This document shows, one piece after another, positions 27,682 to 63,961 of a stretch of 64,000 bases of DNA. The stretch is from positions 13,728 through 77,727 of the forward strand of contig JAUSEN010000015.1 of NCBI GenBank assembly GCA_030650025.1, written 5' to 3'. The stretch is from Candidatus Magasanikiibacteriota bacterium (GTDB lineage: Bacteria > Patescibacteriota > Patescibacteriia > Magasanikbacterales > GWA2-37-8). Position 1 is the stretch's first letter; the number at the start of each line of letters is the position of its first letter. The translations under genes and the position numbers were made by a program. Under the pieces are notes generated by a model, which saw only the letters and a list, made by a program, of their open reading frames with translations, had not been told where the DNA came from and ran no database searches.

Positions 27682-29151
27682 CCGAGCCCGACTGGTTGGT
27701 TGCATGTGGGAGGCCTCCGTACCGCCCTCTATGCTTATTTAATTGCCAAAAAACAGGGCGGGCAGTTTTTGGTGCGTATCGAGGACACAGACCGCGAACG
27801 ATTTGTAGAAACCGGCACGCTCAATATTTTAAAATCTCTCTCTTGGGCAGGGGTAGTTCCGGACGAAGGCGTAGTGCTTGATGCTGGCGGAAAAATCACT
27901 CAAAAAGGCGATTTAGGGCCGTATATACAGTCCGAACGTCTAGCCATATACAAAAAATACGCCGCCGAGCTCCTCGATAAAAAATCGGCTTATTATTGTT
28001 TTTGTACGAGCGAACGACTCGAAGAATTACGTAAGCAGCAAGAATTAAATAAATTGCCTGGCGGCTATGATGGCGAATGCTTAAAAAATTCTACTCCAGA
28101 AGACGCCAAGAAAAGGGTGGCGGCGGGTGAGAAGCATGTAGTGCGTCTCAAGATGCCTAAAGACGGAGAAACAGTGTGGCATGATTTAGTTCGCGGCGAA
28201 GTCAGTTTTAAGAATGCTCTAGTGGACGACCAAGTTTTAATTAAATCCGATGGTTTCCCCACGTATCACTTGGCGGTGGTTGTTGATGATCATGAGATGC
28301 GAATTACCCACGTTATTCGCGGTGAAGAATGGGTTTCGAGCACGCCCAAGCATATTCAGCTGTATAAATATTTTGGTTGGGAAATGCCGGAATTTGCCCA
28401 TTTGCCGCTTCTTCTTAACCCCGATAAATCCAAGTTAAGCAAGCGCCAGGGCGATGTCGCGGTGGAGGATTATAACAATAAAGGATACTTGCCCGAAGCC
28501 CTTATAAATTTCGTCGCCTTTTTAGGCTGGAACCCGGGTACGAATAAAGAAATATACTCACTATCAGAGTTAGTACAGGATTTTAGTTTAGAAAAAGTTA
28601 GTAAATCCGGGGCGGTGTTTAATCTGGAGAAATTAAATTGGTTTAATAAAGAGTATTTAAAAAATTATTCTGGAGAAAAATTAGCTGAATTAGTTCCAGA
28701 ATTTTTTGTTAACAACGATTTTTATCATGATTTTACAGAAAAGTTAGCTGATAAAAATTTTTTTGGCAAAATTCTTGATCTTGAAAAAGAACGAGTTACG
28801 ACGCTCGCGGAATTGCCCGCAGCCGTCAAGTTTATTTTTAAAATTCCGGAATATTTGCCAGAAATTTTAGTGTGGCGTAAAGGCACTCTGGACGAAGTAA
28901 AAATAATTTTACCAGAATTAAAAAATTACTTAGAGAATTTTGAAGTCGGGGAGTGGAATGAAAAAAATTTAGAAGCAAAAATAAAAATTTGGCTTGAATC
29001 CAAAAAATACTCTACCGGATCGGTTTTGTGGCCTCTGCGCGTAGCGCTTAGTGGCCAGCAGAACAGTCCCGGGCCATTTGAGATTGCCGCGGTATTAGGC
29101 AAGGCAGAATCACTGGCGCGTCTAGATTTAGCTATCAGAAAACTGAAATAA
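27661..29151 (+). CDS. gltX: glutamyl-tRNA synthetase
   Basis: Class I HIGH region RFAPSPTGWLHVGG, KMSKS equivalent KLSKRQG, anticodon-binding C-terminal domain. Confidence 0.92.
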   Translation: MIRTRFAPSPTGWLHVGGLRTALYAYLIAKKQGGQFLVRIEDTDRERFVETGTLNILKSLSWAGVVPDEGVVLDAGGKITQKGDLGPYIQSERLAIYKKYAAELLDKKSAYYCFCTSERLEELRKQQELNKLPGGYDGECLKNSTPEDAKKRVAAGEKHVVRLKMPKDGETVWHDLVRGEVSFKNALVDDQVLIKSDGFPTYHLAVVVDDHEMRITHVIRGEEWVSSTPKHIQLYKYFGWEMPEFAHLPLLLNPDKSKLSKRQGDVAVEDYNNKGYLPEALINFVAFLGWNPGTNKEIYSLSELVQDFSLEKVSKSGAVFNLEKLNWFNKEYLKNYSGEKLAELVPEFFVNNDFYHDFTEKLADKNFFGKILDLEKERVTTLAELPAAVKFIFKIPEYLPEILVWRKGTLDEVKIILPELKNYLENFEVGEWNEKNLEAKIKIWLESKKYSTGSVLWPLRVALSGQQNSPGPFEIAAVLGKAESLARLDLAIRKLK

Positions 29152-29170
29152 ACCTGATATTTTTAGTAGT

Positions 29171-29194
29171 AGGGGCATGATATATCATGCCCCT
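29171..29194. repeat. perfect 24-bp palindrome AGGGGCATGATATATCATGCCCCT downstream of gltX
   Basis: Read directly; preceded by ATATTTTTA; no clear U-tract on either side. Confidence 0.5.
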
Positions 29195-29238
29195 ACGGTA
29201 CGCTTTCAAGCCATAAAATATTATGCTATAATACCGCC

Positions 29239-30456
29239 ATGAATAAGCGGTATTTTTTTAGCATAATTGCGATACTCGCCGGTATTTTTTGTATACCGTT
29301 TTTTGCGTTGGCCGAACCCAGTGCTGGGCAACCGGAAATTGAAGTTTTAAATAAAGCCATTTCCGCTCGGCAGGACAAAATTAAGCAACTGGAAGATACT
29401 ATTTCTAAATACAAAAAAAATATTGCGGAAAAACAAAGCGAGGCGGTGTCACTCAAAAATCAGATGAGTATTCTCGATAATCATATCGCGCAAGCCCAAA
29501 CTGATATTGACCTAATAATAGAAAAAATTAAACAAGCGGCCCTCGAAATTGAAGCTTTGCAGATCGATATCAACGATAAACTAAATACTATCGCGCGGCA
29601 AAAACAAATTGTGGCAACTCTTGTTAAAAATATTCACGCTTCGGACCAAAAAAATTATTTAGAAATCATGTTGAGTTACCAATCGTTCGCGCAATTTTAC
29701 GACGAACTCAAGCAAACCGAAAATGTTTATACGGACGTTGGCCGCGCTTTAAAAAATGTGCGGCTCGCTAAAGAACAGCTGGAACGCAAGCGCGAACAAG
29801 TAGGGGCCAAACAAAACATGTATCAGGCGCTTCAAGATGAATTGCAAAATAAAAAAGATAATTTAACAAGCGAGAACACTTATAAACAAAAACTTTTAGC
29901 CGATACTAAAAATAAAGAAAGCATCTACCGCACCTTGCTCGAAAGCCAAAAACGCGAATATCAGGTAGTCGAGAGGGAGATTCGGACATTTGAGGACCAA
30001 GTGCGTAAAAAGTTAGCCGAGCAGGACAAAATTGCCGCCTCTGGGTTGGTGAGCATGATTTGGCCAACCCCGAGCCACATCATTAACGCGACTTTTCACG
30101 ACCCAGAATACCCGTTTCGGCGCGTTTTTGAGCATAGTGGTCTAGATCTAAAAGCCCCTCAAGGCACGCCCATTCGCGCGGCCGCGCCTGGGTTTATTGC
30201 TAAAGCTAGGCGTTGTTCCGTTGCCTCCTGCTACAGCTATATTTTACTAGTGCATACTGGCAACTTATCAACCCTGTACGGCCATTTAAGCAAAATTACA
30301 ATTAGCGACGACGAATTTATTAATCAAGGCGATGTGATTGGTTATTCTGGTGGCACCCCGGGGACAGTCGGCGCCGGTCCGTTTGTGACCGGCCCACATC
30401 TCCATTTTGAAGTGAGGTTAAATGGTATTCCGGTTGATCCGCTCGGTTATTTGTAA
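29239..30456 (+). CDS. secreted coiled-coil M23 family metallopeptidase (EnvC/LytM-like murein endopeptidase)
   Basis: Signal peptide, long coiled-coil, C-terminal LytM domain with HxxxD (HSGLD) and HLHFE (HxH) metal ligands intact. Confidence 0.8.
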   Translation: MNKRYFFSIIAILAGIFCIPFFALAEPSAGQPEIEVLNKAISARQDKIKQLEDTISKYKKNIAEKQSEAVSLKNQMSILDNHIAQAQTDIDLIIEKIKQAALEIEALQIDINDKLNTIARQKQIVATLVKNIHASDQKNYLEIMLSYQSFAQFYDELKQTENVYTDVGRALKNVRLAKEQLERKREQVGAKQNMYQALQDELQNKKDNLTSENTYKQKLLADTKNKESIYRTLLESQKREYQVVEREIRTFEDQVRKKLAEQDKIAASGLVSMIWPTPSHIINATFHDPEYPFRRVFEHSGLDLKAPQGTPIRAAAPGFIAKARRCSVASCYSYILLVHTGNLSTLYGHLSKITISDDEFINQGDVIGYSGGTPGTVGAGPFVTGPHLHFEVRLNGIPVDPLGYL

Positions 30457-32746: not shown

Positions 32747-32842
32747 TGCTCAATTGGTTTGGTTTTGAGCGGGTTATTGAGCCGCAGCGAAATCCCCGAG
32801 GCCTCGCGGCCGAGGAAAGCGAAAAGCCAAACCAATTGAGCA
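32747..32842 (+). promoter_or_regulatory. long inverted repeat / structured RNA candidate in murF-ddl spacer
   Basis: TGCTCAATTGGTTTGGTTTT ... AAAAGCCAAACCAATTGAGCA (20-bp stem, one bulge) enclosing a 55-nt GC-rich loop with internal palindrome CGAGGCCTCG; 3' arm ends 12 nt before ddl ATG. Confidence 0.45.
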
Positions 32843-34086: not shown

Positions 34087-35055
34087 TTATTTTCCGCCGC
34101 GATGAAATTTTTTGTGAATATCACGCAGTTTTTTATTGGTAACGTGAGTGTAAATTTGGGTAGTGGCAATGTTTTTGTGGCCGAGCAGTTCTTGCACCGA
34201 GCGCATGTCCGCGCCCTGATCTAATAAATCGGTAGCAAAACTGTGGCGGAGAGTGTGGGGGGTGGCATCCACTGGCAAGCCGGCCATCGTCGCATATTTA
34301 CGTACTAAACGTTCCACCGAACGAGGTGTTAAGCGATGTTCTTTATCTTCGGTGTTATTTTTTTGGTAATTAATAAAAAGCGGGGGATATAAATCATTTT
34401 TTCGTGTTTCTAGATATTTAGCCAACCAACCCAGGGCACGCTCGGAGAAATAAACTGTGCGGGTACTGCCGCCTTTACCGTTAATTGCGATTTCTAGATC
34501 TTTAATTTTTTTATTTATAATATTTTTTATGTCAAACGACCTTATATTAAGCGACGTTAATTCCGACACGCGCATGCCAGTAGAAAAGAGGGTTTCGAGT
34601 ATAGTTCGGTCTCGGAGACCGTCGGGAGTGGCCGTATCCGGCATATGCACAAGCTTTTCTACTTGATCAAAGCTCAAAAATTTGATAGTTTTGTCTTTGT
34701 CAGTTAGCTTCGGGAGCTTAATTTTGTCACTGGGAAGGCACTGGATATCGCGTTCTGTAAAGTATGCTAACAGGTTGCGCAGGGCTATCAAGTAGTAGTT
34801 CTGAGTCGTTTTTTTAATATAACGGCCTTTAGAGTCTTTTTTGCGAGAAAGATATAGGCGGTAGTTCCAAATCTGCTCCTGGGTCAATTCCTGGGGTTTT
34901 AGGCTCTCTAGGCGGTTATTTTTAAGCCAACCAGTAAACATCTTGAGAAAATTATCATAATTCCTGGAAGTTACCGGGCTTAAACCCTTCTCAACCTCGC
35001 AATAATCAAGAAAGTCCCGTATATGCTTAATGATTGTGGTATTGGAGCGTTTCAT
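34087..35055 (-). CDS. xerD: tyrosine site-specific recombinase XerC/XerD family
   Basis: Catalytic box HTLRHSFATDLLDQGADMRSVQELLGHKNIATTQIYTHV, R...K...HxxR...Y residues. Confidence 0.85.
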   Translation of the reverse strand: MKRSNTTIIKHIRDFLDYCEVEKGLSPVTSRNYDNFLKMFTGWLKNNRLESLKPQELTQEQIWNYRLYLSRKKDSKGRYIKKTTQNYYLIALRNLLAYFTERDIQCLPSDKIKLPKLTDKDKTIKFLSFDQVEKLVHMPDTATPDGLRDRTILETLFSTGMRVSELTSLNIRSFDIKNIINKKIKDLEIAINGKGGSTRTVYFSERALGWLAKYLETRKNDLYPPLFINYQKNNTEDKEHRLTPRSVERLVRKYATMAGLPVDATPHTLRHSFATDLLDQGADMRSVQELLGHKNIATTQIYTHVTNKKLRDIHKKFHRGGK

Positions 35056-39456: not shown

Positions 39457-41646
39457 TTACGGCGCTAATTCCACCTCGGTGGCAATGGATTTTATAGCAT
39501 CGATGGCGAGCTGTAAGAATTCTTCCAGACTCAAACCCAGATGCTCACATTCTTTAATAACTGAACGGTTAACCGTAGCCGCGAAACTTGAGTCTTTAAA
39601 TTTTTTGAGTAGCGATTTAACTTCGAGTGAAGCAATTTTATCAGGCCGGAGCCTGGCCGCGGCGTGCACGAGCCCGGTAACGGTTTCGCCAGCGGCAAGC
39701 GCAAATTCGATGTCCCTTGTTCGGACTTGATCTATTAAGCCAGCGCATTCACAGCCATAGCCATGCGAGAGCATTACCTCGATAAAATAATCAGGAAAGC
39801 CCGCGTCTTTCAAGAGTTTAGGAGCCAGTGTTAAGTGGTTTTTTGGTGTCTCATACGTTAAGTCCCAATCAATGTCATGAAGCAACCCGGCTGTCCCCCA
39901 CCAATCTTCATCTTTCCCCAGGCGCTTGGCCAGCGCGCGCATAACCGCTTCGGACTCTAAATAGTGATTAAAACTAGCGGGCCGATGGTTATATTTTTTC
40001 AAAAGCTCTAACGCGCCCGCGCGGTCCATTGGTAGCAGTGGTAAATTATCATGTGCAGGCTTTGTTATTGCGGTATTGTGAGTAGCGTTAGAAGTCGGAC
40101 TGATCGTTTTTTGATACTCTGGCCGGAGGGTCGGAAATAAAATAACCTCTTTTAAATTTTCTGCGTTTGCTAAAAGCTTAACCAGGCGGTCTATCCCCAT
40201 GCCAAACCCAGCGGTTGGTGGCATACCATGTTTCAAGGCAGTCACAAAATCCTCATCAAACGGCATGCTCTCTTCATTGCCGCGCGCTTCGTTCTCTGCC
40301 TGCTCTCTAAAGCGCGCTTCTTGGTCCAGCGGATCGTTAAGCTCGGTAAAGGCATTACAGAGCTCGTTGCCGCCAATACACAGCAGTTGGAAACGCTCTA
40401 CATACGAAGGGTCGGCCGCCTTTTTTTTAGCGAGTGGAGACAATTCCACCGGGTGATCAATCATAAAAATCGGGTTCACAATGTGTGGCCGCACGTATTT
40501 TTTATAAATATCGTCGATTAGTTTACCGCGATCAGCGGTGGTATCTACCTCATTGCCGAGTAATTTTTTGGCCGCGCCAAGCATCGCGTCGCGGCTTGGG
40601 AAGTCTTCAATATCAAGCTTAGCATGTTTTTTTATCAGATCACGCATTGAAATACGTGGGTATGGCGGCGTAAAATCCACTGCCACATCACCAGTTTTAA
40701 ATTTAAGTGGGAGCCCAGCAGATTTAATAATCTTCGGCAAAAGATCCTCGGTCAAATTCATGAGGTCATTGTAGTCTGCATATGCAGAGTAAAATTCAAT
40801 TTGGGTAAATTCTGGGTTATGGTTATAATCAATGCCCTCGTTACGAAAACATTTGGCGATTTCATATACTTTCTCAAACCCCCCCACGATTAAGCGCTTT
40901 AAATATAACTCTGGAGCAATTCGTAAGTACAGCGGAATATCAAGAGCATTATGATGCGTAACAAAAGGCTTGGCGAGCGCGCCGCCGTATAATGTTTGGA
41001 GTATTGGCGTTTCCACCTCATAAAAACCGTGCGCGTCAAAATAATTACGCATCTCCCTCACGAGCAAACTGCGCATTTTGGCAATACGCATTGACTCGTT
41101 ATTCGCGATTAAATCAAGATACCGGCGGCGATAACGCTGTTCAATATCAGTTAAGCCATGCCATTTTTCTGGCAATGGCAAAAGCGCTTTAGCAAGCACT
41201 GTGTACTCCCCTACTAATAAACTGGTTTCCCCCGTGCGCGTGGCAAACAAAAATCCCGTGCTTTGCAGAAAATCACCAACATCAATATACTTAGCTACAA
41301 ATTTAAACTTATCCTCTCCGAGGTGCGCTTCGGTAAAAACCAGTTGCAGTTCTCCGGAGCCGTCTCGTAATTTACAAAAAATAAGCTTGCCGATATCACG
41401 CTTCGCGACAATTCGCCCCACCACCTCGATACTGCTTTTAACTGCCGACTTAGGCACGGGTTTTGTTAAGTCGAGCTCCTGAACCGGCGTAATTACAGCG
41501 GTAGCCAAATCAACCCGTCCGGTTTTAAACACTACGCGTGCCGGGAATGGGTCAATATTATTTTTACGCAACTCGTCTAGATGCTCTAAACGGATAACGT
41601 CTTCTTTAAGAAGTTTAGGGTCAATTTTTGGCTCTGGTTTCTCCAT
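39457..41646 (-). CDS. lysS: lysyl-tRNA synthetase (class II) with C-terminal HD-domain phosphohydrolase extension
   Basis: OB-fold anticodon domain, class II motifs; about 230 extra C-terminal residues after a low-complexity linker containing H...HD...H...D pattern (GLLHDIDWDL). Confidence 0.85.
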   Translation of the reverse strand: MEKPEPKIDPKLLKEDVIRLEHLDELRKNNIDPFPARVVFKTGRVDLATAVITPVQELDLTKPVPKSAVKSSIEVVGRIVAKRDIGKLIFCKLRDGSGELQLVFTEAHLGEDKFKFVAKYIDVGDFLQSTGFLFATRTGETSLLVGEYTVLAKALLPLPEKWHGLTDIEQRYRRRYLDLIANNESMRIAKMRSLLVREMRNYFDAHGFYEVETPILQTLYGGALAKPFVTHHNALDIPLYLRIAPELYLKRLIVGGFEKVYEIAKCFRNEGIDYNHNPEFTQIEFYSAYADYNDLMNLTEDLLPKIIKSAGLPLKFKTGDVAVDFTPPYPRISMRDLIKKHAKLDIEDFPSRDAMLGAAKKLLGNEVDTTADRGKLIDDIYKKYVRPHIVNPIFMIDHPVELSPLAKKKAADPSYVERFQLLCIGGNELCNAFTELNDPLDQEARFREQAENEARGNEESMPFDEDFVTALKHGMPPTAGFGMGIDRLVKLLANAENLKEVILFPTLRPEYQKTISPTSNATHNTAITKPAHDNLPLLPMDRAGALELLKKYNHRPASFNHYLESEAVMRALAKRLGKDEDWWGTAGLLHDIDWDLTYETPKNHLTLAPKLLKDAGFPDYFIEVMLSHGYGCECAGLIDQVRTRDIEFALAAGETVTGLVHAAARLRPDKIASLEVKSLLKKFKDSSFAATVNRSVIKECEHLGLSLEEFLQLAIDAIKSIATEVELAP

Positions 41647-47035: not shown

Positions 47036-47359
47036 TTAAAAAATTGGCTGCAGTGGAGCAAATTTTATATCTAAAACAATTCTCGTACCGAGGGCCTGTT
47101 CCAACTCGTTTAAAATTTGCTTTTTCTTGAGACGAATTTCCGCTGCCACCGCCGGTGAGGCCACACCCACTAATAGGACGCTGTTTTTAAAACAGATAAT
47201 ATTTAAATAATCTGGAATCAACTTGGGAAAATAATTTTCCAAAATTTGGTTAGCCTTCTCTACTACTAAGGCCGCTGTTACCTGGCGCGCCAAGGGTCTT
47301 TGGCCTTGCGAGCGGTCTTCTAAAATTTTTCTAATAGTCAAAAAACTCATACGCGCCAT
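47036..47359 (-). CDS. DUF721/DciA-like small protein
   Basis: 107 aa; pattern ...AALVVEKANQIL...NSVLLVGVASPAVAAEI... resembles DUF721 (by recall); overlaps start of helicase gene by 13 nt. Confidence 0.45.
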   Translation of the reverse strand: MARMSFLTIRKILEDRSQGQRPLARQVTAALVVEKANQILENYFPKLIPDYLNIICFKNSVLLVGVASPAVAAEIRLKKKQILNELEQALGTRIVLDIKFAPLQPIF

Positions 47360-50300
47360 TCACAAATATCCCGCCAATCGCAACGCGCGCAAACAAACTG
47401 GCTCGGCGTGGCCGTAAAATCACCCGTCATAATCTGGCTAATAGTCCCGGCTAATTTGGCTTTTAATTTCTCTAAATCTTTTGACTCGCCAATAAACGAC
47501 TGCTTAATTTCGTCATTTAAATAATAAAATGTTAATTTGCTCGGCTTACCAATATTTTTAAATTCAGAAATTTCGCCGACCGCAATTTGGTAGAGCAAAA
47601 GTTGTTCTTTGTCATCGCTCGTTAATTTGTCCTTGCTCTGGCCGGTTTTGTAATCAATAATTTCAATAGTGCCATCCGGCAGCTGGTCCAGCCGGTCGAT
47701 ACGACCATTCATCACATACTCCCCCACTTTAATTTTGAACCAGCTTTCAAGACCAATTGGGATGTTCCAATTGCCTTCCTCTGCACTATAAAAAACTTTA
47801 AGAATATCTTTGCCTTTTTTATACATATCTTCACGTTGGCGCTTGTTTTGGTACCAATCACTAATCCATTTGGCATCGTAGATTTTGAGAAGTTCGGCAA
47901 ATTCTGGGGCCTTAATAAGGCCATCTTTTTTGGCCACCGCTCGAGGCGGGGTATCAAATAAAGACACTTGTGAAGCGCTATTAAGCTCTTTTATTCGCTC
48001 ATAAAACGCCTGAAGAGTACTGTGCAGGCTAAGGCCAAAACTAAAACTGGCACTTCCCTTCATGGGAATACGGAGGATATGCGCGAGTTTATATTGATAC
48101 GGGCAGGTTTCGTAAGAGCGGAGCTGTGAGAAAGAAAAAGTTTTTGGCATTTCGTATTCGCCCGGCGCGGCCGGTTTAGCGCGTTCGGTTTTTTTAGGCA
48201 GTTCTATTTTTTTCTTGGCTTTATTTTCTGGCGCCACCAAACCAATCTCATCTAAAAAACGGCTGATTTTTTTAGCCCGAACGCCGCCGTAGTCAAAAGC
48301 ACTCGTAAAATAAAGGCGTTCTTTGGCGCGGGTCATGGCAACATAAAATAAACGTCGTTCTTCTTGCAGATGGCTGTCGCCCTCGGGGAGCTGTTCTTTT
48401 ACCAGGGGGTCGGGAATTTGCAAAGCTTCCGAGCGGCTCCGGGCCGGGAAACGGTCCTCGACTAGGTTTACCACAAATACATAGCGCCATTCTAGGCCTT
48501 TAGCCGCGTGCACCGTTAAAATATTAATCGACTCCGGTGTGTCGCTCGGCTGGTACAGACTACCTTTGTCGCCGGCTGCGACCACCATTAAAAAGTGCTC
48601 GATAAAATTATTAACGTGCGCGTCGGGCGTTATTGCCTCGTACTCCGCAATATAGTCAAAAAATTGTTTTAAATAGCGAATTTGGCGAATAACAGCGCCC
48701 ACCCCTTTGTTTTCTTGGTGCGTTAAGTATGTGAGATAGCCGCTATTTTCTAGGAAGTTATAGAGCACCACCGAAGGCTTGTCCGCGCGCGTAGCCTGAA
48801 GACCGGCGTGGATAATATCGATAAGTTTATTGCCAACCGCAACACCCGCTGGCGAAACGCCAAATTCGGCCGCGCGCTTAAGCGCCTCGTAGTAGGAAAT
48901 ACTTTTACGTTTTGCGCCACTAGTGATTTTTTGTAAATCATTTTCTTTAAATTCCAAAAATGGCAGGCAAAGCAGGCGGTATATGGCGCTCGACTCGTGG
49001 AAATTACTAAGCACTTTAAAAAAATTGACGCAATCAAGAATAATCGCCTGGCGATACAAGCCCGACGACGCCAAAAACTCGTAGGGAATGCCGCGGCTTT
49101 CAAAACCGTTAATAAACGCGTCCGCGTGGCTATTGGCGCGCACCAGAATCGCAAAATCGTCCCAGGTTATGTCTTCATTGGCATCTTTCAAACGCACGAT
49201 TTCTGTGAGCACGGCCGTGACTTCTTCTTCGGCAGTGGCTTTGTGTATGTGTGTTACCGTTCCCAAATTGTCATTCCGACCCGCCCTGGGCGGGGAGGAA
49301 TCTCTGTCCGTTCGCGGTCGCGAACGAGATTTCTCCCCGCCCGCCTGACTTGCATCAGCGTGTCGGGCAGGCTTCGTCGTCGAAATGACAGTTTTTTTAG
49401 CTATCAGTTTTTTATCGATTTTAAGTTTAACCTCCAGGCGGTCCGGGTTATTATTTTGAATGGACTTGTATGCAACATCAAGAATAGCTTGACCCGAGCG
49501 AAAGTTTTCCGAGAGCACCACTTCTTTAGCGTCTTGGTAATCGTCTTTAAAGCGCAGAATATTACTGACGCTGGCGCCGCGGAACGCGTAAATACTCTGG
49601 TCATCGTCCCCGACTACGGTGAGCTGCGATTTTTCGTCAGCCAGAAGCTTGATCAGCTCGTATTGCGCGTAGTTCACATCCTGGAACTCATCAACCAAAA
49701 TATATTTATACTTATTTTGGAATAGTTTTAAAATATTTGGCCGTTCGCGAAAAAGTTTAACCGTGTAAGAAAGCAAATCGCCAAAATCCATAAGCGCGCT
49801 ATCTCGGAGGAGCTGATTGTAAGTGTGGTACGCTAGAGCGAGCTCGGTCAGGCGATTCTTTTCTTCCCCGCCCAGGGCGCCGTTCTGATCTTTTTTGGTT
49901 CCCTCGGCATATTCCAGATATTCCTCGGGCGTAATCAGTTCGTCTTTGCACTTAGAGAAGTGCTTTAAAAATTCATGGATGTGTTTAGTAGGGTTACCGA
50001 GCGGGCGGTAATAATTTAAGTTAAATTTATCGAGGTTCTTCTGGATTAATATCCAACCGGCTGTGTCGGTTAAAAGCTTAAACGAATTGCTCAAACCAAT
50101 ATCAATGGCGTGATGCTCAAGAATTTTTTGGCAAAACGCGTGAAAAGTGGAGATGTGCAAATCCGCGTAGCCAACATTCGTAATTTCGTCCACCCGGGTC
50201 TGCATTTCCTCGGCGGCTTGGTCGGTAAATGTTAGAGCCAAAACTTCTTCGGGCTTGGCCAATTTCTCTTCAAGCAAACGGCAAATTTTGCTGGTGATAA

Positions 50301-50427
50301 CCGTCGTCTTCCCCGTGCCCGCGCCTGCCACAATCAAAAGCGGGCCGGCGACATATTCCACGGCTTCGCGCTGCGCTTTGTTTAATTTAAAATCCGGCAT
50401 ATATTTATCTCCCTTAATTTTTACCAT
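47347..50427 (-). CDS. UvrD/PcrA-type SF1 helicase with C-terminal PD-(D/E)xK (RecB-family) nuclease and Cys cluster
   Basis: Walker A AGAGTGKTTVI, UvrD motifs; C-terminal RIDRLDQLPDGTIEIIDYKTG nuclease motif and CARCDWRDIC; contains in-frame insert encoded by element A. Confidence 0.8.
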   Translation of the reverse strand: MVKIKGDKYMPDFKLNKAQREAVEYVAGPLLIVAGAGTGKTTVITSKICRLLEEKLAKPEEVLALTFTDQAAEEMQTRVDEITNVGYADLHISTFHAFCQKILEHHAIDIGLSNSFKLLTDTAGWILIQKNLDKFNLNYYRPLGNPTKHIHEFLKHFSKCKDELITPEEYLEYAEGTKKDQNGALGGEEKNRLTELALAYHTYNQLLRDSALMDFGDLLSYTVKLFRERPNILKLFQNKYKYILVDEFQDVNYAQYELIKLLADEKSQLTVVGDDDQSIYAFRGASVSNILRFKDDYQDAKEVVLSENFRSGQAILDVAYKSIQNNNPDRLEVKLKIDKKLIAKKTVISTTKPARHADASQAGGEKSRSRPRTDRDSSPPRAGRNDNLGTVTHIHKATAEEEVTAVLTEIVRLKDANEDITWDDFAILVRANSHADAFINGFESRGIPYEFLASSGLYRQAIILDCVNFFKVLSNFHESSAIYRLLCLPFLEFKENDLQKITSGAKRKSISYYEALKRAAEFGVSPAGVAVGNKLIDIIHAGLQATRADKPSVVLYNFLENSGYLTYLTHQENKGVGAVIRQIRYLKQFFDYIAEYEAITPDAHVNNFIEHFLMVVAAGDKGSLYQPSDTPESINILTVHAAKGLEWRYVFVVNLVEDRFPARSRSEALQIPDPLVKEQLPEGDSHLQEERRLFYVAMTRAKERLYFTSAFDYGGVRAKKISRFLDEIGLVAPENKAKKKIELPKKTERAKPAAPGEYEMPKTFSFSQLRSYETCPYQYKLAHILRIPMKGSASFSFGLSLHSTLQAFYERIKELNSASQVSLFDTPPRAVAKKDGLIKAPEFAELLKIYDAKWISDWYQNKRQREDMYKKGKDILKVFYSAEEGNWNIPIGLESWFKIKVGEYVMNGRIDRLDQLPDGTIEIIDYKTGQSKDKLTSDDKEQLLLYQIAVGEISEFKNIGKPSKLTFYYLNDEIKQSFIGESKDLEKLKAKLAGTISQIMTGDFTATPSQFVCARCDWRDICEWRV
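49268..49391. repeat. GC-rich nested-palindrome element A (MITE/RPE-like) inserted in-frame in helicase-nuclease gene
   Basis: Termini AATTGTCATTCCGAC / GTCGAAATGACAG (imperfect TIR); internal IRs CCCGCCC-tgg-GGGCGGG, GGCGGGGAGGAATCTC/GAGATTTCTCCCCGCC, GTTCGCGgtCGCGAAC; encodes low-complexity RHADASQAGGEKSRSRPRTDRDSSPPRAGRND. Confidence 0.5.
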
Positions 50428-53095: not shown

Positions 53096-55398
<2,303 letters not shown>

Positions 55399-55404
55399 AT
55401 AAAA

Positions 55405-58140
55405 TTAAGCCCGCGCCTGGCGCCGAGACAATAATCTGCTAATTAATACTTTGGCAATTTCCAAAACAATTACTACCGTCAATGCCACCGGTAAAATAAT
55501 AAAATAATCATTAAGCGCTAAGGAAAAAGTGTTAAAAGGTTTGTGGAGAATTGGCCAATACACCACCGCCCCAAGTAAAAGCAACTCCCACAAGACGGCG
55601 CGATTGAGCCACTTATTACTAAAGAAATTACGGAACATTGTAATTGATTCCGAACGAAACGCGTACGCTTTAATAAATTCAACCAACACCAAATTGACAA
55701 ATATTATTGTCATGACCTCACTCTCTGGCCTACCTTGGCCAAGCAAAAATATAAATAAAGCGATATTGATTACCATGGACCAAACGCCCCCGGTTAACAT
55801 TAAAGCCACAACCGGCTTCGTAAAAATGCCGGTTTTAAGATTGCGGGGCTTTTCGGACATCAAATTCTTGCGCGGCGGGTCTACGGCCAAAGCCAAAGCC
55901 GGGAGCCCATCGGTCGCGAGGTTAACATACAAAATCTGCACCGCCGTGAGCGGCAACGGGAGGCCTATTACCGTCGCGCCGACCATGATGCCAATTTCAC
56001 CGATATTGCTAGACAAAAGATAAGTTAAATATTTTTTAATGTTTCCAAAAATAATTCTCCCTTCTTCAATCGCGGCCACGATGGAAGCAAAATTGTCATC
56101 AAGGAGAAGCATATCCGCGGCTTCTTTAGCCACGTCCGTGCCGGTAATACCCATGGCAATGCCAATGTCGGCTTTTTTAAGAGCCGGAGCGTCATTAACG
56201 CCATCTCCTGTCATCGCGACCACGTGCCCGCGCGCTTGCAGGGCCGTTACCACGCGTAATTTATGCTCGGGAGAAACGCGCGCGCAAACATCGACCGACT
56301 CAATTTTATTCTCCAATTCTAACGCTGACATTTTTTCTAGTTCCGGGCCTGTTACTACTACGCCCGTCGCATTAATTAAACCCAGTTCGCGCGCAATGGC
56401 TTCGGCTGTAATGGGGTGGTCGCCGGTAATCATCATCACTTTGATTCCGGCGGCGCGACTGGTGGCAATAGCCTCGGCCGCTTCTAAGCGCGGCGGGTCA
56501 ATCATGGCCGCTAGTCCCAAAAACACCAATTCACTAGGCTTAGTGCCAAGCGCCCCGCTCTCTTTGGAAGCTATCGCGATTACCCGGAGCGCTAATTTGG
56601 AAAAATCTTCGACTTGGTTTTGTATCATACGCCGGTAGTCGTCTGTTAAGGGCGAGAAACCGCTGCCAGTCGCGATCTGGGTGCAAAAACCGAGCACGAT
56701 CTCGGCCGCGCCTTTAGCATACTGAATCTCGTAGTCAGAAGTTTTGTGAGCCGTGGCCATAAACTTATCTTCGCTACTAAAAGGAATTTCTGCGACTCGC
56801 GAGTATTCGCTGTCCAGCTCGGTTTTAATCAAACCGGCCTTAGCCGCCGCGACTACCAAGGCCCCTTCAGTGGGGTCGCCTTTAATATCCCACTGTTTGG
56901 CTTCATTCTCAATTAAATGCGCGTCCGAGCAAAGCGCGCCGGCCTTCAAAAACTCCAAAAAGCCGCCCTCGACCAAAACCGGTTTATCGCTAGCCAAAAA
57001 ATCACCCTCTGGTTCATACCCCGCGCCAGTTACATCAATAATCGGTCGCCCCGGCAAATAGATCTTGCGCACCGTCATTTCATCTTTTGTGAGAGTGCCG
57101 GTTTTATCCGTGCAAATTACGGTGGTCGCGCCGAGAGTCTCTACGGCCGGCAACCGCCGAACCAAGGCGTTTCTCTTAACCATTCTTTGTACGCCAATAG
57201 ACAAGGAAATTGTCACCACGGCCGGCAGCGCCTCTGGTACCACGGCCACGGCTAAAGCCACGCCAAACAATAATATTTCCACGAGTGGCGAGCCCCGAAA
57301 CAGACCAACCCCAACAATCACCGCTACGATTACAAACGCCGCCTGCGCCAAGCGCTTACCTACCACTGCCAAATTCTTTTGCAAAGGCGTGACCATGGAA
57401 ACGACCTCCTGAAGCATTCCGGCGATCTTACCAATTTCTGTATTCATTCCCGTCGCGACCACGACCGCGAGGCCTCGGCCATAACTGATATTAGTAGAGG
57501 CAAATACCATATTTTTGCGATCGCCCAAGGCCGCGTCTCTCGCCGCGATTGCTTCGGAGTGCTTTTCCACGGGTACAGATTCACCTGTCAAAGACGCTTC
57601 CTCGGCCTTCATATTAACCGACTCGATAATTCTGGCATCCGCCGCGATTCTATCGCCAGCCCCTAAAACTAAAATATCGCCGGGCACAATCTCTTCGGCC
57701 AAAATTTCGACCTCTTGCCCGCCGCGTAAAATGGTGGCGATTGGCGCCGCCATTTTTTTCAAAGCTTCCATGGCCTTTTCCGCCCGAAATTCTTGAACAA
57801 AACCCAAAATAACGGCAAACAAAACAATTACGCCAATCGCAATAGCTTCTACCGCGTGGCCAAGAAACCCGGACAACGCCACGCCCAAAAGCAAAATAAT
57901 AACTAAAATATTTTTAAACTGGCCTAAAAATACAGCGAAGGGAGAGATGCTTTTAGTCACAGCTAACCGGTTCAACCCAAATTGCGCCAGGCTGTGCTGG
58001 GCTTGTTCCACAGTTAATCCGCGGGTGCTCTCTGACCCGAGACTTTTTAGCACTGCCTCGCTGGTTTTAGAGTGCCATGGCTCTTGGCTAGAATCTGTCA
58101 TGATAAAAACTCTGTTAAATGGATTTTTTAAATTGCTCAA
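55405..58140 (-). CDS. P-type cation-transporting ATPase (type IIA/IIB Ca2+/Mg2+-like) embedded in atp operon
   Basis: Phosphorylation motif [13 protein letters not shown]-like actuator (TGESVPVEK), [30 protein letters not shown], 10 TM helices; an alternative ATG at 58101 would remove the 26-nt overlap with atpA. Confidence 0.9.
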
Positions 58141-59644
58141 TCGCGTCTTGCAAATCTTTGGCCACTGACTCGTCCCAAATACCAGAAGCGATTTTAGTTA
58201 ACAGCCCGCTCTGGCTCTGGTTTAAATAAGCCTGCAATTTATCCTCCCAATCTCTGATATTTTTTACGTCCACGTTATTAGCCAAACCATTCGTAATCGC
58301 GTAAATAATCGCCACTTGGTTAGCTACTGGCATCGGCTGATACTGCGGTTGTTTTAGAACTTCTACCAAACGCTGGCCCAAATCAATTTGTTTCTTGGTC
58401 TCCGGGTCAAGATCACTAGAAAATTGGGCGAAAGCTTCGAGCTCACGAAATTGCGCTAACTGTAATTTGATTTTTCCGGCCACTTTTTTCATGGGTTTAA
58501 TTTGGGCGTTAGAGCCGACCCGCGAAACCGAAATGCCCACGTTCACCGCCGGGCGAATACCGCGGTAAAATAAATCTGCTTCCAAAAATATCTGCCCATC
58601 GGTAATGGAAATTACGTTAGTTGGAATATAAGCCGTTACGTCTCCAGCTTGCGTCTCAATAATGGGCAGAGCCGTAATTGAGCCTCCCCCGGCTTCTTTA
58701 TTCCGCCGGCAGGCGCGCTCTAATAATCGTGAGTGTAGGTAAAAAACGTCTCCCGGGTAAGCTTCGCGGCCCGGCGGACGACGGAGCAAGAGCGACACTT
58801 CGCGGTAAGCCCAAGCCTGCTTGCTTAAATCATCATAAATCACCAGGACATCTTTGCCCTGGTCCATAAAATATTCAGCGATAGAAACACCGGCGTAAGG
58901 CGCGATAAACAAGAGCGCGGCCGAGTCCGAAGCGCCTGCGGAAACTACGACTGTGTAGTCCATCGCTCCGGCTTCTTTTAATTTAGCAACCAAACGGGCA
59001 ACTTTGGATTCTTTTTGGCCAATCGCTACATACACGCAAATCATATTCTGATCCTTCTGATTGATGATAGTGTCGATGGCGAGAGACGTTTTACCAGTTT
59101 GCCTGTCGCCAATAATAAGCTCGCGCTGGCCGCGCCCGATTGGAATCATAGCATCGATTGCTTTGATTCCGGTTTGCACCGGCTCCGAGACTGGCTCGCG
59201 AGTCATAACCCCGGGAGCGATTCTTTCAATCGGGTAAAACTTCTTAGTGGTAAAAGCGCGGCCGCCATCAATTGGGCTACCGAGCGGGTTCACTACCCGG
59301 CCAATCAATTCTTCGCCGACCGGCACGGACAGAATGCGACCGGTGCGCTTGGCAGTATCGCCCTCTTTAATATGTTTAAATTCGCCCAAAATTACCACCC
59401 CCACGGTTTCTTCTTCTAAATTTAAGGCTACTCCGTAAGTGACCTGACTGGCCCCGTCATTCGACGGGGTTTTCATTTCACTCAAAAATTCAATCATCTC
59501 GTTAGCTTGGCATTTAGTTAAGCCACTCAATCGAGCGATGCCATCCCCAATCTCTTCCACTTTCCCGATTTCGGCGACGGCTACTTGCTGTTCAAAATCA
59601 GCAATGTGTTTTTTTAACTCGGCAATAATCGAATTAGTAGACAT
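58115..59644 (-). CDS. atpA: F1 ATP synthase alpha subunit
   Basis: P-loop [18 protein letters not shown]. Confidence 0.95.
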
Positions 59645-62213: not shown

Positions 62214-62414
62214 TTAATCAAATAATACGGCTTGGTATAAAGAAAAACCAGTAATTACTACCAACCCCAAAAACACCATTGTTGGTAGCCATCGCGAACG
62301 CTTCCTAAAACGATGCATTATATCGTCAATAAGCAAAAAAATAAAGAACCACAATCCGGCAAACTGGAAAAAAAATAATAAAAATATGCCCATTATTTCC
62401 AACAATCTAGTCAT
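62214..62414 (-). CDS. hypothetical small membrane protein
   Basis: 66 aa, two hydrophobic helices; overlaps tatD start by 8 nt. Confidence 0.35.
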   Translation of the reverse strand: MTRLLEIMGIFLLFFFQFAGLWFFIFLLIDDIMHRFRKRSRWLPTMVFLGLVVITGFSLYQAVLFD

Positions 62415-63345
62415 TTAACTTAATTTTATTGAATAAATATAGGGCATTTTGCGTAGTGGCCTTAACAACTTCATCATAAGAAACACCGCGAATCTCCGCA
62501 ATTTTTCTGGCGGTAAACTCTACCATCCACGGCTCGCCTCGCTTTCCGCGATGAGGCACGGGTGACAGATACGGGCAATCAGTCTCAAGCAAGATTCTCT
62601 CGAGCGGCATTTTCGCCACCACTTCTAGTAAATCTGCTTGCGCTTGTGGATTTTTTTTAAGCGGCGGAAAGGTGATCACGCCAGTAAAACCAATATAAAA
62701 CCCCATCGCTAAATACTTTTGCGCGTTTTCCCAATTGCTCGTATAGCAGTGAATCGTGCCGGTAAGCGGTGAGACCCCACCCTCGCCCTCCCCTTTGCGA
62801 AGGGGAGGGGAATCGTCGTCCCCCCTCCTTTGCAAAGGAGGGGGGAGGGGGAGGTCTCGCGTCGCATCTTGTAAAATTTCGATCAACTCCTCATGCGCCT
62901 CGCGGCAATGTATCACCATTGGTAAGTTTGTTTCTTTGGCAAGCCTAATATGCTCTAAAAAAACCTGCCTTTGCTTGGGTAGCATTTGCTCTTTACTTAG
63001 GCCCTCGGGAATTCGATAAAAATCCAAGCCGCATTCCCCTATCCCGATTACTTTCTCGCTCGCGCAAAGTTTTTTATAATATTCAAAATTAAATTCTTCT
63101 TCTCTTGATAAAAATGAAGTTTCTTCTTCATCCACAAACTTGCTAAACAAATGCTCGGGGTGGAGCCCAACGCTCGCAAAGACATTTTTAAAGCGCTCGG
63201 CCACTTCCACGGCCCTCTTACTAGTATCACTCTGGGTGCCGACCAAATTTATCACCACATTTTTGGATAAACTGCGTTTAATAACCTCGTCTGAATCAGC
63301 CTGATAGGCATTAAAATGCGCGTGGGCATGAGTGTCAAAAAGCAT
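62407..63345 (-). CDS. tatD: TatD-family metal-dependent hydrolase/DNase with in-frame low-complexity insert
   Basis: MLFDTHAHAHF N-terminus, GECGLDF, VIHCREAHE, IHCYTSNW, ETDCPYL motifs; about 30-aa Pro/Gly-rich insert encoded by element B. Confidence 0.85.
   Translation of the reverse strand: MLFDTHAHAHFNAYQADSDEVIKRSLSKNVVINLVGTQSDTSKRAVEVAERFKNVFASVGLHPEHLFSKFVDEEETSFLSREEEFNFEYYKKLCASEKVIGIGECGLDFYRIPEGLSKEQMLPKQRQVFLEHIRLAKETNLPMVIHCREAHEELIEILQDATRDLPLPPPLQRRGDDDSPPLRKGEGEGGVSPLTGTIHCYTSNWENAQKYLAMGFYIGFTGVITFPPLKKNPQAQADLLEVVAKMPLERILLETDCPYLSPVPHRGKRGEPWMVEFTARKIAEIRGVSYDEVVKATTQNALYLFNKIKLND
62771..62858. repeat. GC-rich nested-palindrome element B inserted in-frame in tatD
   Basis: Hairpins CCCTCCCCTT-tgcg-AAGGGGAGGG and CCCCCCTCCTTT-gc-AAAGGAGGGGGG flanked by GAGACC...GGTCTC; encodes DLPLPPPLQRRGDDDSPPLRKGEGEGGVSP. 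Confidence 0.45.
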
Positions 63346-63352
63346 AATTATT

Positions 63353-63427
63353 CTGTCATCTTGAGCGTAGCGAAAGATCTAAGCGAAACGCTTGCCTTAG
63401 ATTCTTCGCTCCGCTCAGAATGACAAT
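63353..63427. repeat. intergenic palindromic element C (TTGTCAT...ATGACAA family member)
   Basis: CTGTCATCTTGAGCGTAGCGAAAGATCTAAG ... CTTAGATTCTTCGCTCCGCTCAGAATGACAATT imperfect 30-bp inverted repeat between cvpA-like gene and tatD. Confidence 0.45.
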
Positions 63428-63433
63428 TAAAAA

Positions 63434-63961
63434 TCAAGGCAAAACTTTATTAAAATTGTCACGGAGCATCTGTAATGCCTGAGGCACGAGCGGCCACAGC
63501 ACGGCCGCCACCCCCATAGTAAGAGGCGCGAGCGCAGAATTTGCCAAATAACCCATGAATCTAGGGCTAAGCGGATATATTTGCATAAAATTAAAGATTA
63601 TCCCTAAAACCAACACCCCCTCCAATAATCCAAAAACTAAACCCAAAATTTTATTCAATCCATTTAAAAAAGGTAAACGCGTCACTACGGAAAGCAACCG
63701 ATCCACCACCCAAAACAACAGCCCCACCAAGCGGTTTATAATTATAAACGCCAATATAAACATTATGACTTTAGGAAAATTTCCGGCCCAACCAGTAATG
63801 CCAGTAAGCCAATTGGCCAGCGGCTCATAAAAGCGGCTCGCCAAGAAAACCCCCAGCACCGTCCCCACCAATGAACCAAGCGTATGAATTAAACCAAACC
63901 ACAGGCCAAACAACCCAAACCCACCAATAATTATAGCCAAAATTAAGTCAAAAAAAGACAT
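63434..63961 (-). CDS. cvpA: CvpA-family membrane protein
   Basis: 175 aa, 4 TM helices, N-terminal MSFFDLILAIIIGGFGLFG pattern typical of CvpA. Confidence 0.6.
   Translation of the reverse strand: MSFFDLILAIIIGGFGLFGLWFGLIHTLGSLVGTVLGVFLASRFYEPLANWLTGITGWAGNFPKVIMFILAFIIINRLVGLLFWVVDRLLSVVTRLPFLNGLNKILGLVFGLLEGVLVLGIIFNFMQIYPLSPRFMGYLANSALAPLTMGVAAVLWPLVPQALQMLRDNFNKVLP

Follow-up and report, generated by a model that had tools for sequence, protein, structure and literature searches.

Several groups of short palindromic repeats are known to reach into protein-coding sequence. The Rickettsia palindromic elements (RPEs; Ogata et al., 2000, 2002) are short palindromes that occur in frame in unrelated housekeeping genes and are translated at positions compatible with the protein fold, with 44 insertions in Rickettsia conorii (PMC10969869). 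Likewise, in-gene dimers of repetitive extragenic palindromic (REP) sequences have been reported to encode 20–30 amino acids, often in genes for DNA metabolism (PMC3733652), and MITEs (miniature transposable elements with inverted repeats) occasionally form in-frame fusions with the open reading frames (ORFs) of their hosts (PMC10969869). Here we describe a double-hairpin element that lies within gene tatD, in the codons for a surface loop of the TatD nuclease, in a 64-kb stretch of DNA from Candidatus Magasanikbacteria (contig JAUSEN010000015.1; the whole stretch of 64,000 nt is called the window throughout), of the Patescibacteria or Candidate Phyla Radiation (CPR). The best reading of this element is that it is one copy of a small, non-autonomous family of palindromic repeats in CPR genomes of the Candidatus Magasanikbacteria type. 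A full-text literature search found no report of such elements in CPR/Patescibacteria, and the family would extend the "protein-coding palindromes", best known from Rickettsia, to another lineage of small, reduced genomes.

The double-hairpin element and its dispersed copies

The element is a palindrome of 90 nt, or exactly 30 codons (positions 62770–62859), with 68–70% GC, and is in frame in tatD. A previous, sequence-only reading of the window had delimited it as 62771–62858, and had described two perfect hairpins, with stems of 10 and 12 bp, bracketed by GAGACC (62771–62776) and GGTCTC (62853–62858). Both hairpins and brackets are as described; the limits, however, had to be moved one base further out on each side in view of the other copies of the family and of orthologs with an empty site. 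Hairpin 1 has a perfect stem of 10 bp, with one pyrimidine and one purine arm, and loop TGCG, whereas hairpin 2 is a perfect palindrome of 14+14 nt, equivalent to a 12-bp stem with loop TGCA, whose arms include CCTCCTT and AAGGAGG. As inverted repeats, the two hairpin units show a mutual complementarity of 81%, and the outer arms (62771–62795 and 62834–62858) are 76% complementary, forming an outer stem around both hairpins; positions 62770–62778 pair with 62851–62859 in the consensus structure.

The hairpin motif is expected 0.00 times by chance, as estimated from 100 shuffles of the window. The element folds as DNA in a three-way structure with z = −5.1, and as RNA with z = −6.6, with none of 200 shuffles folding as well; its RNA fold of minimum free energy is one long hairpin of −68 kcal/mol. 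A GC scan also corroborated that the local GC content is far above the average of the gene, because it reaches 0.70 in the best 80-nt segment versus 0.46 for the whole tatD gene and a mean of 0.45 (standard deviation 0.08) for the window, making it the second-highest GC peak in the 64 kb. When compared to Rfam at gathering thresholds, the window yielded only tRNAs, and a permissive Rfam scan of the locus retrieved only sub-threshold hairpins resembling microRNA precursors (up to 29 bits, versus thresholds of 66–100).

We found five full copies of the element, all of them in frame, in the tatD genes from the window and from a second genome (L001), in smc (L043), in a sucD-like gene (L063) and in an M24 peptidase gene (L129), with the host genes confirmed using Pfam (Table 1). 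The copies from the second tatD gene and from the peptidase gene are 94% identical over 95 nt and have unrelated flanks, and their similarity spans exactly from one 9-bp terminal inverted repeat to the other. These limits therefore fix the ends of the element, and the covariance-model hit in the window agrees with them. The terminal inverted repeats CGAGACCTC/GAGGTCTCG, a defining trait of MITEs, are perfect in these two copies; the L001 and L129 copies carry the identical terminal 9-mer at both ends, and the L043 copy at one. Members of the family are 85–95 nt long and are arranged alike, with the outer stem and, inside it, two pyrimidine/purine hairpins that have TGCN and CGCA as loops, whereas the spacer between the hairpins differs in length and sequence from copy to copy. 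The L001 copy, with ends CGAGACCTC...GAGGTCTCG, has loops TGCC and AGCA and arms richer in T than those from the window copy, which is 76% identical to the smc copy and 69% to the other tatD copy. Aligned to the consensus three-way structure, the five copies have 91.5% of the cells paired, versus 54–71% when the partners are slid by 1–3 columns, and 9 of the 34 pairs changed on both sides, mostly from C-G to T-A; none of 500 shuffles reached the observed values. We also considered whether the element has a fixed orientation relative to the host gene, which is not robustly definable because the element is nearly symmetric and each of the loops, TGCN and CGCA, is the reverse complement of the class of the other.

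The same genome and its relatives harbor another palindrome, element A (TGTCAT...ATGACA), which is likewise in frame and likewise uses the TatD loop in other orthologs, but differs from the double-hairpin element in its ends, composition and internal sequence. The sequence-only reading had proposed two options for the tatD insert, another family of elements or a copy of element A that had degraded. The first option is supported by its own ends (CGAGACCTC/GAGGTCTCG), its own hairpin layout and its recurrence in four other genes or genomes. Conversely, we discarded a decayed element A: the termini differ and, at E ≤ 1, the covariance model of the double-hairpin family (R1) gave no match to the TGTCAT elements of the window at 49270–49389 and 63355–63424, so the two represent separate families. 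The first of these TGTCAT elements, of 120 nt and with a fold of −70.5 kcal/mol, is in frame in a UvrD-helicase / PD-(D/E)XK nuclease gene (47347–50427, minus strand, 1026 aa), to which it adds around 40 residues (...KPARHADASQAGGEKSRSRPRTDRDSSPPRAGRND...), and the second, of 70 nt, occupies the short spacer between cvpA (63434–63961) and the start codon of tatD.

All five copies are free of stop codons in the host frame, for which they use two different reading frames (RDL... and ETS/QTS...). Additionally, each double-hairpin copy is open in four to six of the six frames: an 89-nt core of the window copy and the entire L129 copy are open in all six, as occurs in only 1.6 and 0.1%, respectively, of the shuffles (composition-matched for the window core), compared to only two or three open frames in TGTCAT elements. 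Stop codons are rare in any frame because the arms contain only pyrimidines or only purines, and therefore read-through after insertion is likely in whichever frame or orientation.

Searches for further members retrieved little else. When peptides of the element in several frames were concatenated and used in a word-indexed search of proteins, only four proteins were found, of which two were already known and two (P0121 and P0122) were new or confirmed. Among the matches listed, pattern scans of genomes, metagenomes and viral contigs gave only short elements; with the terminal repeat plus hairpin pattern, we obtained four stretches from metagenomes (two distinct intergenic sequences), none of them in a long ORF or with the two-hairpin layout of the family, and no match in viral contigs. 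A blast comparison to plasmids produced one partial hairpin match of 46 nt in a Photobacterium record, which we judged uninformative.

The dispersed copies bear on two other possible origins for the insert. Loop length and sequence vary among TatD orthologs, which could agree with the element having arisen locally, when slippage or template switching affected a hypervariable loop, and never having been mobile. In smc, sucD-like and M24 peptidase genes there are nearly identical copies that share these ends while their flanks are unrelated, which makes such an origin highly improbable. An artefact of assembly or amplification (for instance, a chimeric palindrome) in a contig assembled from a metagenome is hardly credible: the exact window protein is known from one contig only, and palindromes are among the known failures of some library preparations, but the insert has exactly 30 codons, is open in frame and shows the ends typical of the family, its sister copy (P0002) appears in independent assemblies from an NCBI and an ENA record, and the other copies come from unrelated projects.

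Table 1. Positions of the element, its parts, its host gene and its other full copies.
Feature	Sequence	Positions	Strand	Details
Complete palindromic element	Window	62770..62859	-	tatD coding strand: CGAGACCTC...GGGGTCTCA; covariance-model match full-length, 90.2 bits
Terminal inverted repeat GAGGTCTCG	Window	62851..62859	+	Coding-strand 5' end is CGAGACCTC
Second terminal repeat, slightly decayed	Window	62770..62778	+	TGAGACCCC versus family consensus CGAGACCTC; from copy alignment
Hairpin 1	Window	62786..62809	.	CCCTCCCCTT-TGCG-AAGGGGAGGG; arms 62786-62795 and 62800-62809
Inter-hairpin spacer	Window	62810..62818	.	GAATCGTCG; CGTCGTC run at 62814-62820 abuts hairpin 2
Hairpin 2	Window	62819..62846	.	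TCCCCCCTCCTT-TGCA-AAGGAGGGGGGA; 28-nt perfect palindrome
tatD, TatD-family metal-dependent nuclease, 312 aa	Window	62407..63345	-	Pfam PF01026 (TatD_DNase), E=4e-72
Copy in tatD of second genome (P0002)	L001	5493-5587		Covariance-model match, 109 bits
Copy in smc, another Magasanikbacteria metagenome-assembled genome	L043	2255-2339		Hairpin-pattern scan of genome collection
Copy in sucD-like CoA-ligase gene	L063	1768-1858		Hairpin-pattern scan; same assembly as L008
Copy in M24 peptidase gene (P0121)	L129	70-164		Peptide search

Comparison with described families and related hairpins

As the RPEs, the double-hairpin element is a palindromic repeat without a transposase of its own, found in frame in several unrelated genes (here tatD, twice, smc, the sucD-like gene and the M24 peptidase gene) of small, reduced genomes. 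Its position is also compatible with the protein fold, because it corresponds to a surface loop both in the AlphaFold2 model of the host protein and in solved TatD structures. Nevertheless, it is set apart from RPE-1 to RPE-10 by its host, which belongs to the CPR instead of the Alphaproteobacteria, and by its size of 85–95 nt, versus around 100–150 nt; it is also GC-rich, with pyrimidine/purine hairpin arms, and its apparent copy number is much lower, with one copy in 64 kb versus the 44 insertions given for R. conorii (PMC10969869).

The REPs, tagged with a conserved, unpaired GTAG at an end of every hairpin or terminally with CGTC (or TGTC/CCTC), and the REP doublets forming hairpins (REPINs) have been described in detail (Bertels and Rainey, 2011, PMC3116915; Di Nocera et al., 2013, PMC3733652). 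The tatD element resembles REPs and REPINs in having two short inverted hairpins (81% complementary) that are able to fold into one long hairpin; CGTC-type REPs, too, have no associated transposase. Among the 60 window ORFs scanned against Pfam, no REP-associated tyrosine transposase (RAYT, of the IS200/IS605 type) was found. However, GTAG is absent from both hairpins and termini of the double-hairpin element, and there is a CGTC run beside hairpin 2 in three of the five copies (window, L001 and L129), but not in those from L043 and L063. Similarly, loops of 4 nt are within the size of those from REPs (4–5 nt), but the stems have 10–12 bp instead of 8–9 bp, and there is no CCA tail, where REPs have a 3-nt tail. 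The element also differs from REPs in possessing defined terminal inverted repeats of 9 bp. All five full copies found are intragenic, with one in the 64 kb of the window; REPs are mainly extragenic and reach tens to hundreds of copies in a genome.

MITEs (e.g., Correia, ERIC and BOX; PMC10969869) are likewise short elements without coding capacity or autonomy, which have terminal inverted repeats and an interior that folds strongly. By contrast, none of the five copies shows a recognizable target-site duplication; among the window ORFs and the listed matches of the pattern scans, we found no parent insertion sequence with matching ends. Lastly, mitochondrial GC-rich palindromic clusters and coding palindromes, as those from Nematomorpha (PMC6649704), also consist of GC-rich or perfect hairpins in the coding sequence of a genome with lower GC; these are, however, organellar, in Nematomorpha both arms encode conserved protein, and no dispersed family with terminal repeats was shown there (PMC6649704). 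The double-hairpin element behaves as the RPEs and the intragenic REP dimers do, but departs from the sequence definitions of the described families, and we prefer not to file it under RPE, REP or MITE. Its family is nonetheless concrete and testable, being specified by its ends, a consensus structure and a covariance model.

Hairpins of a similar kind are widespread. A scan of the genome collection with pattern CCYCYCCTTNGCNAAGGRGRGG gave, among the matches listed, more than 116 stretches in very diverse phyla, including Pontibacter, Hymenobacter, Acidobacteriota, Armatimonadota, Competibacteraceae, Geomonas, CPR and one metagenome-assembled genome (MAG) of Pacearchaeota. Hairpins of the form CCCCTCCTT-NGCN-AAGGAGGGG (loci L009–L124, e.g., L015, L020, L066, L087, and L097), whose arms correspond to the Shine-Dalgarno sequence AAGGAGG and to the anti-Shine-Dalgarno-like CCTCCTT, usually occur beside AACCACCCC or GGGGTGGTT plus a second hairpin. 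They are often multi-copy per genome and, among the matches listed, most are intergenic; some are in frame, in genes for Sua5/YrdC (L066), a nitrogenase component-1-type protein (L087) and a ComEC metallo-beta-lactamase domain (L056). The tatD family may share ancestry with the CCCCTCCTT...AAGGAGGGG hairpins, with their GGGGTGGTT flank, or may have merely converged on a pyrimidine/purine hairpin. Relatives with a single hairpin are also present in Magasanikbacteria loci, for instance in frame in trmD from L043. This trmD gene (L043 26–943, minus strand, from a Magasanikbacteria MAG) contains two separate in-frame inserts: one of TGTCAT type (VILSKAKDP...RAQND) and the single pyrimidine/purine hairpin, at 154–206 (FNPTLYPSPIRGGARGGVF).

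The window contains other inverted repeats. A single-copy perfect palindrome of 28 nt (29169–29196; GTAGGGGCATGATA/TATCATGCCCCTAC), with ends GTAG...CTAC, is located between the genes for Glu-tRNA synthetase (ending at 29151) and an M23 peptidase (starting at 29239), and looks like a REP or a terminator. Additionally, a Mur ligase gene and ddl are separated by a spacer with a 20-nt inverted repeat (32747–32766 and 32823–32842) whose arms, 56 nt apart, are 95% complementary.

The inserted loop of TatD and its interpretation

The product of tatD from the window is an exact match to protein P0001, from a GenBank MAG of Candidatus Magasanikbacteria (117.6-kb contig), and its matches to solved TatD structures reach E-values as low as 1e-43. 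As initially predicted, the reading frame continues across the element, reading RDLPLPPPLQRRGDDDSPPLRKGEGEGGVS between ...HCREAHEELIEILQDAT and PLTGTIHCYTSNW; the insert is thus a segment of 30 residues rich in Pro, Gly, Asp and Arg (TatD residues 163–192), without any stop in the host frame. In an AlphaFold2 model (38 homologs), with a mean predicted local distance difference test score of 91, the insert is in the alpha5-beta6 loop, between helix 151–162 and strand 196–199; residues 172–188 score below 50 and the remaining barrel above 90. At this site, solved TatD structures have only around 6 residues between the matched stretches. Residues H6, H8, E104, H146, H199, and D256, which we take to be the metal ligands, are among the invariant columns of the TatD alignment, and the gene therefore looks functional. 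In TIM barrels, an alpha-to-beta loop is on the other side from the C-terminal ends of the strands, where catalysis takes place, which puts the insert on the face away from the active site. It is thus probable that full-length TatD is still made, with an extra loop of 30 residues, predicted to be disordered and rich in Pro, Gly and charged residues, on its non-catalytic face. When the 30-aa peptide was compared exhaustively with 1.84 billion proteins using HMMER, only two TPR-like hits were obtained, both attributable to chance. In genome annotation, inserts of this type inflate protein length, create spurious low-complexity segments and can break domain matches.

From the above, we consider it probable that the element is a selfish or neutral palindromic repeat, non-autonomous and translated as a tolerated loop. 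The element would be copied to new sites by an activity supplied in trans. The copy in the window is in the codons of a TatD surface loop, with a length multiple of three and no stop in the host frame; the pyrimidine and purine arms, poor in stops, would allow the insertion to be probably read through, and selection would keep only the in-frame insertions in permissive loops. Several observations weigh against this reading. A Pfam scan of the 60 ORFs from the window revealed no transposase, the only recombinase being a Phage_integrase-family protein (tyrosine recombinase; 34090–35055), and no direct repeat indicative of a target-site duplication flanks any of the five copies, although a duplication of 1–2 nt may be hidden in the terminal CG; consequently, we infer the mobility step, as well as neutrality and the mode of spread. 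There is only one copy in the 64-kb window, and very large collections yielded no more than five full copies; in known REP and RPE families, each genome contains tens to hundreds. The window allele, moreover, rests on a single assembled contig, and the compensatory changes could mean selection on the structure itself, implying a function. Finally, we infer from sequence, as the economical option, that the insert is translated, because removal at the RNA level would give the copies no reason to keep the frame.

A co-opted function could reside in the RNA or DNA structure, or in the peptide loop itself. For instance, an mRNA hairpin of around −68 kcal/mol could slow ribosomes between the two halves of TatD, could participate in mRNA stabilization or processing, or could mask the internal Shine-Dalgarno-like AAGGAGG by pairing with CCTCCTT. 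The very stable fold, the preservation of stems via compensatory changes across copies, the presence of AAGGAGG and CCTCCTT in the hairpin arms and the recurrence of the same hairpin module in many phyla would agree with such roles. We nevertheless hold co-option to be quite improbable, since most close TatD orthologs lack the element and others carry unrelated palindromes at the same place. Additionally, the same element appears in functionally unrelated genes and in different frames, which leaves no conservation of the peptide or of any role specific to one gene; the peptide is without relatives at the protein level, no Rfam family matches above threshold and, besides, the symmetry of the arms of palindromic repeats can persist without selection for function.

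Occupancy of the TatD loop among orthologs

The gene order metG-cvpA-tatD-atpI-atpB is common among the orthologs. Four of them with the same order (L002, L004, L130, and L131) have an empty site, with a loop of only 6–13 residues at the position of the insert. Among 119 TatD homologs, the distance across the loop was of 17–25 residues in 89, and was expanded by around 15–40 residues in 25. Alignment of the orthologs indicated that the insert is not conserved at the protein level, whereas such conservation would have argued against the initial interpretation; instead, at least four types of palindromic elements occupy the loop, and the double-hairpin type appears only in P0001 and P0002. Inserts of the TGTCAT...ATGACA type, for which the DNA was seen in L006 and L132, encode peptides such as VIPTE...EES...ARND or VIASEAKQS...APRND and are present in many of the proteins. 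There is a decayed form in L008, and L007 contains a GGGGTGGTT-type element with hairpin CCCCTCCTT-TCC-AAGGAGGGG. The long insert of P0012 (L132) was considered as a possible nested insertion at the hotspot, but it is one long TGTCAT element and not a composite. Among the homologs, the start of the insert shifts by several codons relative to the conserved helix.

In a neighbor-joining tree of TatD, built without the loop and carrying no bootstrap support, the protein from the window groups with P0011 and P0010, of empty site, while P0002 groups with P0004, carrier of a TGTCAT-type insert. P0002 and P0004 are 81% identical in full length (an estimated 90%, approximately, outside the loop) and carry different insert types. 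On the basis of the loop-free tree, of the contrast between P0002 and P0004, of the varying start of the insert and of the higher identity of the window copy to the smc copy, we favor that the two double-hairpin inserts in tatD are separate insertions of one family into the same loop, and that there is element turnover at this site. The TatD loop looks like an insertion hotspot with turnover.

Alternatively, one ancient insertion in tatD might have been inherited vertically in the lineages of the window and of L001, and lost or replaced elsewhere, without recent mobility in the window lineage. Both inserts are in the same loop and frame, and the identity between the elements (69%) is about that between the whole genes (68.6% at the DNA level), in favor of vertical descent. 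This possibility appears unlikely to us: the tree separates the two hosts, placing each nearer to relatives that are empty or have another type, without being decisive by itself; P0002 and P0004 differ in element type despite their 81% identity; the two inserts start two codons apart when placed against the conserved helix; and the 94%-identical copy in an unrelated gene denotes recent copying in the L001 lineage.

The window contains around three palindromic elements in 64 kb, two of them at tatD, namely the double-hairpin element within the gene and a TGTCAT element immediately upstream of it (63355–63424), which hints at more than passive tolerance. Accordingly, it could be proposed, albeit as a doubtful scenario, that the alpha5-beta6 loop of TatD is an active landing pad, where unrelated palindromic families, namely the double pyrimidine/purine hairpin, the TGTCAT types and a type with GGGGTGGTT, would repeatedly home or replace one another via a hairpin-targeting mechanism; hairpin CCCCTCCTT-NGCN-AAGGAGGGG, present in many phyla and with its Shine-Dalgarno/anti-Shine-Dalgarno-like arms, would then be the substrate of an enzyme. 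Whether as a tolerated or as a targeted site, this recurrent colonization of one loop is the most interesting by-product of the analysis, since about a fifth of the tatD orthologs are occupied and they offer a natural system to contrast selection on permissive loops with targeted insertion.

Other features of the window and of the syntenic loci are also of note. An ORF for a class II tRNA synthetase of the Asp/Lys/Asn type (39457–41646, 729 aa) has a catalytic domain, as defined by Pfam, ending at residue 507, and the remaining 220 C-terminal residues, approximately, have no domain match at E ≤ 1e-9. The cluster for the F-type ATP synthase includes a gene for a P-type cation ATPase of 911 aa (55405–58140), flanked by the genes for the alpha (58115–59644) and gamma (54475–55398) subunits, that is not at this position in the syntenic loci L002, L004, and L008. 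Small genes with domain 23S_rRNA_IVP (PF05635) are found at different positions in otherwise syntenic loci (L001 1881–2246, L006 383–790, and L008 16556–16942), either separating a methylase gene from metG or within the cluster for the ATP synthase, which suggests that this is a small mobile gene. Lastly, L008 and L063 come from an assembly (GCA_964533715.1) labelled as "uncultured Gammaproteobacteria"; both its tatD/ATP-synthase gene order and its TatD, with 66% identity to that of the window, match CPR of the Magasanikbacteria type, and the label is probably wrong.

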